Source: Heptranchias perlo (Eukaryota). Taken from it: DNA of 64,000 nt. Position numbers and translations under genes: made by a program. Under the pieces are notes generated by a model. That model did not search any database, was not told the DNA's origin, and saw only the letters and a program-made list of their open reading frames with translations. Location: positions 3,410,001 through 3,474,000 of the forward strand of contig NC_090361.1 of the NCBI RefSeq assembly GCF_035084215.1. Direction: 5' to 3'. Below are positions 9,873-61,786 of the stretch, one piece after another; position 1 is the first letter of the stretch, and every line of letters begins with the position of its first letter.

Positions 9873-10201
9873 TCTCAACAGGCATCGTACGGCTGTCCAG
9901 TAAATGGTAACAGAAGTTTAATACTTTAGTCTATATATTTCCTTTTATATTCCTGGGACCGAGAGCACGGCTGTTTATAAACTCCTTGCTCCTTCTGTCT
10001 GCTGTATAATTATCCACTTGCGCTACAGGTTTACTTGATCAGATTCCCTGTGTGACTGATGGTGTTCTGGGAGACTGTGAGTAGACGCACAGAGCTGAGG
10101 AAGGTGGCGTTTGAAAAGCGCACAATAAAACTTGAGCTAAAAACGGAAAATACTGGAAACCCTCAGCAGGTCCGGTGGGATCCGCAGAGCGAGAGAGACG
10201 G

Positions 10202-10238
10202 AGTTAACGTTTCAGGTCGATGACCTTTCATCAGAACT
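10202..10238 (-). ncRNA. Minimal type-I hammerhead ribozyme motif in a Penelope-like repeat fragment (10125-10240)
   Basis: AGUU CUGAUGA A AGGUC-AUC-GACCU GAAA CG UU AACU: catalytic core plus paired stems I and II. Confidence 0.7.
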
Positions 10239-12364
10239 GAATAAAGTTGAGCTGTTGGATTTTGTGCTCCCTCAACCATAAGAAATGGGAGCAGGAGTGG
10301 GCCATTCGGCCCCTCGAGCCTCCTCCGCCATTCAATAAAATCATGGCTGGTCTTCAACCTCAACTCCACTTTCCTGCCCGATCCCCATGTCCCTTGATCC
10401 AACATCACTCGAACAGATTATCCGGTCGTTATCACATTGCTGTTTGTGGGATCTTGCTGTGCGCAAATTGGCTGCCCCGTTCCCTACATTACAACAGTGA
10501 CTACACTTCAAAAGTATTTCGATGGCTGTAAGGCGTCTTGGGACGTCCTGAGGTTGTGAAAAGCGGGATACAAACAGCAAGTTCGTTCTTGTGGTCTCAT
10601 CGAATGTCAGTGTCTGGGGCAGGGGGGGGGAATGCTTTTGCCAGTTTTGCTACCCGCCAGCACCGCCCCCCCCAGGCCACCAACTGCAGACTAAATCTCC
10701 CTGTACTCTGCCCTAAGGGTACGTTAGATCATTGCGCTGGACTCCAACGTGCTGTGTCACAGAGCGATAGGAGGCTGATTTGCATCTGTGAGGGGGGCAG
10801 GTTCTGTTTTTAGTTGTGGGAAAACGCTTGGCAGGGGACAGGGGCAGAATAGCGAAGTCAGGTGGAGGGTCCCCTCGTGATGTTGGGCACCGTCTCGTGA
10901 CGGATTAACACAGCAGCATCAACAAAAGGCCACCAGACAGCTTTCTCTGCTGAGCGATGTGTTCACACACTCAGTCGCTCCTTCCAGTTTCGTTCACTAA
11001 GGTCCGGATACGGTAGACTATAATTGAGGAATGGAACCCGACAGGGGCCAATCCCCAGTCTCTGCTGAGTAAGATCATCTCAGCTGAGGCGGTGGCAGGG
11101 CTCCAGAGACGTGACTCGTGCTCCATCTGTTCTCTAGTGACCCCTGCTAGAAAGTGCGGCCATTGAGAGTGCGGTCATTGAGTAACCAAAAGGATCAGGT
11201 TTGGCACTGATGCCTCTCAGGTCCAAACACCCACCTCCTCGCTGTCTAGGCTCACATTTAAATGGGCACTCGGGGTGGGATACTGGACTGGCACTCGTGT
11301 AACTGTCCCCTAGCGCCTGGCAATACCTTCAGGGGAAAATCAGCAAAGCAAAGAATAAAATCCTAAAGTTGTCTCTGTTTCCTTTCAGGTCCAGTGATTA
11401 ATTTAATCGGGGTGTTGTTTAATCTCTGGATAATGGTACATTTCTGAACAACGCACCAGGCTGAAACATGATCACTAACGCACCAATACTGACACCTGCA
11501 AGAACAGAACAGAAACCCTTGCATCTGTAACAGGGACTGCTCTGGCAAGAATATATCCAGCTATTTGGAGATGGGGGGGTGGGGTGAAAACAAGGGTTTA
11601 CATAAACTGATTGAAGGATGGTTCATTCCACTGTTTTTTAGTGTTTAATACAAGATACTGAATACAGGAAAAAGACAGTTGAAAATTACTAAAAACGAAA
11701 CCAGGCAACTGGTTTTGAGGCCGACGTACACAGATCTACCACTCAGTACTAAACTGCAGTAGTTCAGCGCTGCCACTGGAGGCTGCTACTGAGCCGTACC
11801 AATTTTGTAGCAGCGTCCAGCGGTTGGACTCAGTGACCTTGCAGCATTTAAAAGGGTGCTCCACCTAAAAGCAGCTCCTAGTCCTACGACTCCTGAGTAC
11901 GAGGACAGGGATTATTTCACCAAATAACGAACGGACAAAAACCCGTTCGAGGTGCTCCCTGAAAACCGGGATACTGATCCGCAGTTCTGAAAGTCAGTCT
12001 GCCAATTTCGGGATCGTGTAGAAAAATAACACGCCCAAAGTGTAAACTACGGGATCACGCGATCCACTCTAGATTGGTAGAAAAGAGCGACACGCTCAGT
12101 TCATCGGTCGGGCTGAGTGTTTTCCTTGGGGAGCAGTTTTCGAAGTCCCCCAAAGTTGGGAGATGAGGAGAGGGCCAGTGAATTTCATGGAAATTTTAGG
12201 AAACTTGTGTGAAATTCATTGGGTCACTTCCTTCTCAGCTTCATGGAATTTCAGGAACCCCGTGTAAAAAAAAAAACTGAATCCGTGGAAAGTGCATGTC
12301 CCTACTCATTGCTGGTAGTATCTTAAGTATATACTTGATTGTACTGGTACCAAAGGTAATTTTC

Positions 12365-56039: not shown

Positions 56040-57475
56040 AAAAACCCACCCTTGACCTTTTCCGTCCTTGCAAACTACCGGCCCATCTCCAACCTCCCTT
56101 TCCTCTCCAAAGTCCTTGAATGTCTTGTCGCCTCCCAAATCCATGCCCATCTTTCCCGCAACTCCATATTCGAATCCCTCCAATCAGGTTTTAGACCCTG
56201 TCACAGTACTGAAACGGCCCTCATCAAAGTCACAAATGACATCCTATGTGACTGTGACCGTGGTAAACTCTCCCTCCTCATCCTTCTCGACCTGTCTGCA
56301 GCCTTTGACATGGTTGACCACACCATCCTCCTGACACCTCTCCTCCGTTGTCCAGCTGGGTGGGACTGCCCTCGCCTGGTTCCATTCCTATCTATCCAGT
56401 CATAGCCAGAGAATCACCTGCAATGGCTTCTCTTCCCACTCCCGCATCGTTACCTCTGGAGTCCTCCAAGGATCTATCCTGGGCCTCCTTCTATTTCTCA
56501 TCCACATGCTGCCCCTCGGCGACATCATCCGAAAACGTCAGATTCCACATGTACGCTGACGACACCCAGCTCTACCTCACAACCACCTCCCGCGACTCCT
56601 CCACTGACTCTCATTTGTCACACTGCTTGTCCGACATGAGCAAAAATTTCCTCCAACTAAACATCGGGAAGACCGAAGCCATTGTCTTTGGTCCCCGCCA
56701 CAAACTCCGTTCCCCAGTCACCGACTCCATCCCTCTCCCTGGCCGCTGTCTGAGGCTGAACCTTGGCATCCTATTTGACCCTGAGATGAGTTTCCGACCC
56801 CATATCTGCTCCATCACCAAGACCGCCTGCTTCCACCTCCGTAACATCGCCCGTCTCCGTCCCTGCCTCAGTTCATCTGCTGCTGAAACCCTCATCCATG
56901 CCTTTGTTACCTCTAGACTGGACTATTCCAATGCTCTGCTGGCCGGCCTCTCATGTTCCACCCTCCATAAACTTAAGCTCATCCAAAACTCTGCTGCCCG
57001 TATCCTAACTCGCACCAAGTCCCATTCTCCCATCACCCCCTGTGCTCGCTGACCTATACTGGCTCCCGGTCCGGGAACACCTCGATTTTAAAATTCTCAT
57101 CCTTGTTTTCAACTCCCTCTGGCCTCGCCCATCCCTATCTCTGTAACCTCCTCCAGCCCTACAACCCTCCGAGATCTCTGCGTTCCTCCAATTCTGGCCT
57201 CTTGCACATCCCAGATTTTAATCACTCCATCATTGGTGGCCGTGCCTTCAGCTCCCTAGGCCCTAAGCTCTGAAATTCCCTTCCTAAACCTCTCTGCTTC
57301 TCCACCTCTCTCTCCTCCTTTAAGACGCTCCTTAAAACCTACCTCTTTGACCAAGCTGCCCTAATATCTCCTTATGTGGCCCGGTGTTAATTTTTTTTTG
57401 ATAATCGCTCCTGTGAAGCACCTTGGTACGTTTTACCATGTTAAAGGCACTATATAAATGCAAGTTGTTGTTGTA
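56040..57475 (+). mobile_element. L2-type LINE with degenerate reverse transcriptase, 5'-truncated
   Basis: [46 protein letters not shown]; frameshifted; intact 3' tail. Confidence 0.95.
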
Positions 57476-58750: not shown

Positions 58751-59835
58751 TTTTAAAACTCCCATTTGTCAATTATGCTGATGCTGATTAATGAAGAAAG
58801 AACTTGCATTTATATAGCGCCTTTCATGACTTACTTTTGACACGTAGTCACTGTTGTAATGTAGGAAATGCAGTCAATTTGCGCACAGCAAGATCCCATA
58901 GACAGTAATAAGGTAATGACAACGTAATTTGTTTTAGTGATGTTGGTTGAAGGATAAATATTGGCTGGGACCCGGGGAGAACTCCCCCTGCTCTTCTCCA
59001 AAATAGTATCACAGGATCTTTTATATGCACCTGAGAGGGTAGATATGGCCTACAGTTTAACATCTCATCCAAAGGACAGCATCTCCAACAATGTAACTTT
59101 CCCACAGCTATTGCCCCTCTGATAGTGTAGCACTCCCTCAGTACAGCACTAGGTGCATTAAGCCTCAATTACATGCTCAAGTCTCTAGAGTGAAACTTGA
59201 ACCCATAATCTTCCGAGTCATAGGCAAGAACGCTACCCACTGAGCCACAGGAAAGGATATGATAGGTCAATGGCGCACAGGAGGATACAGGATCTGAAGT
59301 TCTCCTAGCAACAGCACCTCTACTCAAGCGATAGACTGTGATTCAGTTCTAGAAACCAGCTCTCCAGGGGTACAATCACTGTGCATTCAGCCAGCAGGCA
59401 GAAACTGCACAGACAGAAACGGGCCTGCCAAGGCAAGTCAGAACATCCCAAATCCCATAATGGCTTATTACCAGCAGTAAAATATTCCATTTAGTCGATC
59501 CAGAGGGAATGTGTCTTGCAAATTATAAGTCAGAATAAGGAGATAGGTGTAATCATATTTTTTAAAATGTAGGAATAACAATAGACAACTGCAATGGGCA
59601 ACACCTCAATTTTAAAATTCTCATCCTTGTTTTAAAATCCCCCCATGGCCTCGCCCCTCCCTATCTCTCTAACCTCCTCCAGCCCTACAACCCTCCAAGA
59701 TCTCTGCACTCTAATTCTGGCCTCTTGCGCATCCCCGATTTTAATTGCTCCACCATTGGTGGCCGTGCCTTCAGCTGCCTAGGCCCTAAGCTCTGGAATT
59801 CCCTCCCTAAACCTCTCCACCTCTCTCTCCTCCTA

Positions 59836-60239
59836 ACAAATGTTATCTGTTTTTAATATAATGGGTCATTTGCTGGCTCTCTCTGCCTTCCGGATGTTTC
59901 TGCCTCTCTCTCTGTTTTTTTTTTCTCCTTTTTTTTCTCTGTTTTTTTCCCTGTTTGTTTTTTTGTTGAATGTGTATTCGGGGGTTCTGCAGATGACACC
60001 TCTCTGTCTGAACACGGTGATTGCCTTGGCAACGGGCAGTTGCAGAGGCAGTCTGTAAACACCATGTATTATTCAATATGTATAAATGCGTAGGCTTCAA
60101 GGAGATCTTGAAACATTTACCTGAGGAAGGAGAAAATCTCCGAAAGCTTGTGAATTTAAAATAAAATTGCTGGACTATAACTTGGTGTTGTAAAATTGTT
60201 TACAATTGTCAACCCCAGTCCATCACCGGCATCTCCACA
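59836..60239 (+). mobile_element. Penelope-like terminal repeat / retrozyme-like insertion
   Basis: TSD TCCTCCTA (59828-59835, 60240-60247), TATAAA at 60081, hammerhead, AATAAA at 60160. Confidence 0.7.
60115..60155 (+). ncRNA. Minimal type-I hammerhead ribozyme motif
   Basis: AUUUAC CUGAGGA A GGAGA-AAA-UCUCC GAAA GC UU GUGAAU. Confidence 0.75.
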
Positions 60240-61786
60240 TCCTCCTATAAGATGCTCTTTAAAACCTACCTCTTTGACCAAGCTTTTGATCACCTGGCCT
60301 AATATCTCCTTTTGTGGCTCGGTGTCAAATTCTGTCTGATAATCGCTCCTGTGAAGTGCCCTGGGGGTGTTTTACTATGTTAAAGGCGCTATATAAATGC
60401 AAGTTGTTTTTGTGACCCCCATCTACCCCCCTCCCCCCACCAATCAGCCACGCGGTCTCCTGGGAGAGGCAAAAACACAGAGAGAAAGAAAAAAAAAATC
60501 TTAGGCCAATTTAGGAAAAACTCGAGGAATTCCTCTCCGACCCCCGAAGATGATCGAAGAAGTTCCCAGAGACATGATGACTGGTAGACACCTCCTCCAA
60601 TACACCACCCACCATCCATACATAGTTATATGGACCACACTCAGCAACTCCTCCAGCTTCCTTTAGAGTGATTACAGACACTGCTTGTGCTGATAACTGG
60701 TTGCTGAGATCAACAACTCTTTATGAAAACAACTACCTCCTGACATCCAACCTAGTTCGATGCTTATGTCATTTATTCTCATGTCCCCTGATCCTCCCGA
60801 ACCTATCTAACTCAAATAACCTAGCCACATGGACTGAATCTGATCCTTTCAATATTTTAGAGACTTCAAACCCAATCTCCTTGAAGCCGACACTTTTCTA
60901 GGCTAACAAGACCCAGCTCTCTAAGCCTATCATGTCAAATAAAGGCCTTTAAATTAGGTATTAATTTTCAGGCCCTCCTTTGAACCTTTTCCAGGGCCTT
61001 TATATTACCCACCACGTGAGGGGAACAAAATTGGACCAAGTATTCTAAATGGCCAATGCTTTATACAAAGTATTTTTTTTGTTTTGTATTTAATGGTCCT
61101 GGCAATACATCCTAACACTCTATTTGCTTTTGCAATAGCCTCACAGCACTGGTCATGAGCCTTCAGAGAGTCATAAATGCAGGCCCATAGTGCTCCCTGT
61201 GCTAAAGGCACTTAGATCCTTCATGCCGCCTGAAATGACCCTTTGTAGCCACTGAGCGAGCAGTGCGGGCAGATAAGTGTGGCTTGGGATCTTCCTGCAG
61301 CAGCTCAAAGAGATGTCTCATTGCCTCTTTGCTGAAGCGCACTCTACTTATCCACAATCCACAGGATGCACTGCAGCAACTCGCCAAGGCTTCTTCGACA
61401 GTACCTCCCCAAACCCACTACCTCTACCACCTAGAAGGACAAGAGCAGCAGGCACATGGGAACAATACCACCTGCACATTCCCCTCCAAGTCACACACCA
61501 TCCCGACTTGGAAATATATCGCCATTCCTTCATCATCGCTGAGTCAAAATCCTGGACTCCCTTCCTAACAGCACTGTGGGAGAACCTTCACCACAAGGAC
61601 TGCAGTGGTTCAAGAAGGCGGCTCACCACCACCTTCTCAAGGGCAATTAGGGATGGGCAATAAATGCTGGCCTTGCCAGCGACACCCACATCCCATGAAC
61701 GAATAAAGAAAAACAACTCCTCAGAAAGGTCCTCACAAGACATGTGCTGCCTGTATATCTTATGGGGGGAGGTGCTACAAGGGCGG

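Follow-up and report, generated by a model that had tools for sequence, protein, structure and literature searches.

A minimal hammerhead motif in the truncated end repeat of a Penelope-like element from the shark Heptranchias perlo

Minimal hammerhead ribozymes (min-HHRs) have been described in the Penelope-like elements (PLEs) of metazoans (Cervera and De la Pena 2014, PMC4209133) and are reported there to be inactive as monomers and weakly active as dimers. They have the core CUGANGA ... GAAA ... UH, one unpaired base after A9 and a G10.1-C11.1 pair (consensus in supplement Fig. S3), no loop 3, a palindromic 15.2-16.2 pair and a U at position 17 (common in the alignment of that study). They are located in the end repeat (pLTR) with an A/U-rich 3′ flank, mostly in solo truncated copies and also in inverted pairs. 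In the Neptune clade of PLEs (Craig et al. 2021, PMC8557442), a reverse transcriptase (RT) domain is followed by a C-terminal GIY-YIG domain, with a CX2-5CxxC linker and a DKG motif, and the copies include partial tandems, an inverted 5′-truncated copy, a 30-40-bp tail and an HHR in the pLTR. In the green anole element Poseidon PAc (Frangieh et al. 2024, PMC11167929), which belongs to another clade, two internal RT start sites define the tail, the HHR lies near the pLTR-ORF junction and requires the element's protein, and the RNA used as substrate is mainly unprocessed. Drosophila Penelope, by comparison, uses a TATA-less internal promoter (PMC2377424). The non-LTR retrozymes (PMC7229834; bioRxiv 10.64898/2026.07.22.740005) also carry type I hammerheads, which derive from PLE pLTRs and in vertebrates are dimer-dependent; they form short tandem arrays with canonical HHRs.

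The motif studied here shares the sequence and location features listed for min-HHRs. It occupies positions 60115-60155 on the forward strand of the window, by which we mean the whole 64,000-nt stretch of H. perlo DNA analysed. Stem I is formed by ATTTAC (60115-60120) and GTGAAT (60150-60155), with one G-U pair, and encloses the core CTGAGGA (60121-60127), an extra, bulged A (60128), stem II (GGAGA at 60129-60133, loop AAA, TCTCC at 60137-60141), the core GAAA (60142-60145), the palindrome AGCT representing stem III (60145-60148) and U17 (60149), directly after which the cut is predicted. G60129-C60141 is the G10.1-C11.1 pair, and A60128 is the unpaired base after A9. Direct reading thus agreed in every part (core, stems I and II, NUH site, AGCU palindrome and extra A) with the preliminary description of this DNA, and the assignment to the minimal type I hammerheads is also consistent with a descriptor scan, with covariation and with the published consensus (PMC4209133). 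Stem II is 4-5 bp long here, shorter than in many of the examples in PMC4209133. As far as its sequence tells, the motif is the already published minimal-hammerhead arrangement of PLEs, to which this family and host add a member. There is no shark among the entries in the part of the PMC4209133 supplement that was searched, the bioRxiv survey (10.64898/2026.07.22.740005) includes one chondrichthyan, and no shark-specific description of a PLE hammerhead was found in the literature searched, to which Repbase/Dfam and subscription journals did not belong.

The motif lies within a 404-bp insertion (59836-60239) whose ends are uncertain by 1-2 bases owing to microhomology. It is flanked by the duplicated 8-base word TCCTCCTA (59828-59835 on the left, 60240-60247 on the right), and the target-site duplication is given as 6-8 bp because the element's own end continues for 2 bases. 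When joined, the flanks aligned gap-free at the insertion site to all five paralogous host repeats tested in the window, with 82-91% identity. It corresponds to the compact insertion named in the preliminary description, and each of the five paralogues provides an empty-site counterpart. The older host repeat that it split was recognised from paralogues in the window, 75-90% identical for the left part (59597-59835), and continues at 60240-60413. A 234-aa ORF with a weak RT match (56348-57052) directly precedes a copy of this host repeat, which suggests a LINE whose 3′ end is the host repeat. Four ORFs of at least 200 aa were found in the window, three without a Pfam match and one with the weak RT match, and a minisatellite of 26-27-bp units at 1229-2174 yields a spurious 418-aa ORF.

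The insertion matches four longer copies (L003, L037, L038 and L040) at 403 of 404 bases, and these run upstream into an ORF. The window copy itself opens with the last six codons and the stop codon of that RT-endonuclease ORF (59836-59856, identical in its letters to the end of a 902-aa ORF at locus L036); apart from these codons it is ORF-less, and it is solo, with no tandem partner. It reads as the 5′-truncated 3′ end, a pLTR with its tail, of a probably Neptune-type PLE, a lone stump and likely an inert by-product. The 3′ ends of 97 copies cluster in two places separated by about 36 nt, with 52 ends lying at 60202-60213 and 45 at 60239-60252. The tail between these clusters (60203-60241) reaches almost to the start codon of the ORF in tandem copies and corresponds to the tails described in PMC8557442 and PMC11167929. 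Within the pLTR, the region 59900-59995 contains a long pyrimidine tract, which varies in length by about 12 nt among subfamilies, followed by a splice-acceptor-like CAG near 59990; no joint in the contigs of four runs of uncertain type agrees with such an acceptor.

At locus L036 the 902-aa ORF stands between two repeats in a pLTR-ORF-pLTR arrangement. It is a single ORF with an RT domain (YIDD; RVT_1, E 3.6e-10) followed by GIY-YIG (E 6e-4; 20.5 bits, slightly below the curated cut-off of 22.6), a DKG motif, and a C-X4-C-X2-C linker at residues 753-761 that fits CX2-5CxxC. Six intact copies of this ORF were found, in 4 of 288 loci. Neighbouring hammerheads in tandem elements are 3,080-3,082 nt apart, the tandem period being the full 3.08 kb, which compares with 3,033 nt between the two HHRs of a coral Neptune element (PMC4209133). 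The family also contains inverted 5′-truncated partners, partial tandems and a 36-nt tail, and the ORF starts about 90 nt past the cut site, whereas in Poseidon PAc it starts inside the HHR (PMC11167929). The closest named protein relatives of the ORF are shark proteins with 80-95% identity, and a PDB sequence search with it gave no match. These features point to a Neptune-type PLE, the clade call being made from the motifs together with the host; the CX2-5CxxC linker is also present in Nematis (PMC8557442). Loci L181 and L183 (G000:C1:4434000-4469900) contain head-to-tail full 3.08-kb elements with intact 902-aa ORFs and are candidate source loci. In an epsin-2 model of 548 aa from a shark, a stretch of about 260 residues is 95% identical to the element ORF and would be an exonised or mis-annotated insertion.

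The exact 41-mer at 60115-60155 occurs 1,112 times in the genome and, together with the 403/404 identity, indicates that the family is young. A wider motif had 79,018 genome matches compared with 1 for the control, and a second pattern, which captures mostly older families, had 12,765 compared with 253. The first number is far above the counts of about 4,000 and about 9,000 that PMC4209133 gives for coelacanth and Xenopus, respectively, but it is no record, since 126,247 motifs are given for axolotl (PMC7229834; bioRxiv 10.64898/2026.07.22.740005). In an own-genome search with the insertion, in which 40 of 804 candidates were scored, at least 42 matches had an identity of 99-100%. Among the other minimal hammerheads, one at 10200-10240 on the minus strand of the window has an ACGU palindrome and a 4-bp stem I and belongs to an older, unrelated-looking family, of a type common among the second-pattern matches. 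Eight near-identical minimal hammerheads of another family (L097-L104, G000:C1:927781-1017683), which would be cut after C and have a 5-bp stem I, lie 8-22 kb apart on one strand, apparently inside a large tandem duplication.

To evaluate covariation, 23 words were picked by hand from 115 distinct ones; the rows are related, and core invariance among them is partly imposed by the search patterns. Base pairs were formed in 91% of 299 cells, compared with 27-49% in slid controls, and two-sided changes were seen at 10 of 13 pairs, including 5 of 6 in stem I and 4 of 5 in stem II, many of them contributed by 4 rows of one older family. The palindrome pair 15.2-16.2 of stem III was G-C in 19 rows and C-G in 4. 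In 33 of 500 runs, shuffles had at least as many pairs with two-sided changes. The alignment thus indicates covariation across subfamilies in stems I and II and in the palindrome of stem III, as expected of selection on the fold, and the stem covariation for which the preliminary description had proposed to look was found.

Whether the motif is a hammerhead at all, and whether its carrier is a truncated PLE, can be weighed from these and further data. A likeness to a hammerhead that arose by chance, or that belongs to a structure binding protein or controlling translation with no catalytic role, would account for the outcome of the Rfam scan that had been recommended, which was run and gave no hammerhead model among five weak matches at E ≤ 10. 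It would also fit the ordinary folding energy (z -0.33, with 67 of 200 shuffles equally good) and the low published activity of min-HHRs, for which other roles are possible (PMC4209133). We consider it very unlikely, however, because the descriptor scan found two hammerhead-like sites in the window, while the strict setting (stem II at least 5, stem I at least 6) gave none in 200 dinucleotide shuffles of the window and the loose setting gave 0.025 sites per shuffle; because the wider motif exceeded its control so greatly; because all three helices covary; and because a PLE hammerhead does cleave, in experiments that included core-mutant controls (PMC11167929). It is harder still to credit that the 404-bp unit spreads by itself as a non-autonomous retrozyme, propagated in tandem and as circular RNA. 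Its size is like that of non-LTR retrozymes (170-400 nt, PMC7229834; 363 bp on average in one chondrichthyan, bioRxiv 10.64898/2026.07.22.740005), but the locus has no short tandem array, the unit begins inside an ORF, none of 97 family copies shares its 5′ end, the 5′ ends being spread continuously, and the tandem period of the family is that of the full element. A retrozyme identity was therefore rejected for this solo copy, the truncated end of an autonomous element. Of the origins that had been put forward for the motif, the minimal type I hammerhead of a shark PLE stands, on pLTR location, shark protein relatives and covariation, and the tandem retrozyme does not.

The motif is, with high probability, the minimal hammerhead of a PLE end repeat in a lone, ORF-less stump, and would cut after 60149 only with a second copy or a protein of the element. 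The earlier suggestion that the window copy is still active is to be read in the same way, as a prediction that would need such a partner or protein. The predicted centroid fold contains stems I and II, and in an RNA of 60111-60242 their predicted probabilities are 0.68-0.85 and 0.74-0.98, respectively; in three longer RNA contexts both stems are predicted to be outcompeted, with a stem I probability of at most 0.06. For the dimer, the energy estimate of the double hammerhead is -15.7 kcal/mol compared with -22.5 for the best alternative dimer. On the same strand, the nearest hammerhead that is compatible belongs to another insertion 6.2 kb downstream, beyond the window, and so the window copy does not strictly lack a potential partner. 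An insertion of a sister subfamily (L287, G000:C40:3474941-3476447) is present 0.9-2.4 kb beyond the window end and consists of a copy of 1.3 kb on the minus strand and a short partner in inverted orientation; of its two hammerheads, one is on the same strand as 60115-60155.

The positions at which copies begin were used to look for the start of the element RNA. A TATA-like box (TATAAAT, 60081-60087), a putative promoter element, precedes the hammerhead, and transcription generally starts about 30 nt from a TATA box. In a sample of 97 of the first 100 exact copies, numbered by the positions of the window copy, 24 begin 6-11 nt before the core, in a putative start zone at 60110-60115, and 10 of them begin at 60111, 30 nt downstream of the first T of TATAAAT. 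In a second sample of 100 copies, selected by an anchor downstream of the ribozyme and including some segmental duplicates, 46 started no more than 19 nt upstream of the core, 9 in the core, 7 past the cut, 15 at 20-199 nt upstream and 23 farther away. The 24 copies of the first sample and these 46 point to uncut RNA as their template. In a mixed sample with 69 short copies, 40 were assignable, and 16 of the 40 fit a start at TATA +28 to +32; in a subfamily with TATA at -39, the starts scatter from +19 to +29. Our tentative reading, which may well prove wrong, is that transcription starts 30 nt past the TATA-like box and 4-5 nt before stem I, that run-off copying of the uncut, capped leader, with priming at internal RT sites, gave rise to the tens of thousands of 130-150-bp stubs, and that the ribozyme acts as a dimer- or protein-gated switch removing read-through RNA from translation (or towards circles) rather than as a template-making step. 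With such a start, the hammerhead would be transcribed first and its cutting would remove the cap.

The same ends could instead arise if the reverse transcriptase stalled at or after the hammerhead structure, so that short copies would end before stem I without RNA starting there. That 19 of 100 ends lie 0-9 nt before the core, across all subfamilies, and that fold-backs with A/T microhomology account for 4 of the 10 ends at 60111 is in keeping with stalling. Nevertheless, the peak moves with the TATA-like box, being at -10 when the box is at -40 and at -14 to -17 (8 of 13 short copies) in the subfamily in which the box is 6 nt farther upstream, at -46, and ends within the stems are rare (9 of 100); we regard stalling as somewhat unlikely. 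If the ribozyme frequently cut the retrotransposing RNA in vivo, a different trace would be expected, namely a footprint of copies starting at 60150. Under one flank filter, exact counts gave 63 copies starting there, compared with 139 in total over 60146-60149, or about 35 at each position (24, 19, 30 and 27 in a hand tally of the first 100), and an initial 100-match sample had 12 of 99 starts at the cut site by hand tally. The step is less than twofold (binomial p 1e-4, rising to 0.026 once 14 fold-backs are left out), and 77 copies start one base downstream, with similar or larger numbers suggested by the sample deeper in the A/T run. Moreover, 14 of the 63 are fold-backs made through complementarity within stem I, inverted pairs include 27 of the 35 arms that were examined (30 loci), and the roughly 110 starts estimated from the sample shrank to 63 in the exact count. 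Corrected for the flank filter (a factor of about 0.39, estimated from base composition), cut-site starts number about 160 of 45,255 copies (about 0.35%). Because they are so rare, there is no clear cleavage footprint, and frequent cutting of this kind appears quite improbable; nearly all templates were thus uncut or re-ligated, in agreement with PMC11167929. Cleavage followed by re-ligation into a circle leaves no footprint, and the rarity is therefore compatible with cutting.

Under the reading that RNA starts just before stem I, the following course may be proposed. Since the repeat is present on both sides of the 902-aa ORF, as shown in the DNA, one RNA would carry two hammerheads 3,080 nt apart. 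These two copies would form stem III via the AGCU palindrome, or the element's protein would chaperone the fold; slow cutting would trim a capped leader of about 39 nt and release unit-length RNA, and the RT would prime internally near the start codon and copy mostly uncut RNA. The window copy extends 275 nt upstream of the putative start, which makes the downstream repeat of a read-through RNA its likely template.

PMC8557442 and PMC11167929 leave open what role the hammerhead has in PLEs. On its own, the window copy contributes no more than one record of an RNA start or RT stop, but the family, in which ORFs are intact and the motif is present about 79,000 times, is a large natural record of both, and it offers an easy construct for assays of dimer or protein-assisted cleavage.
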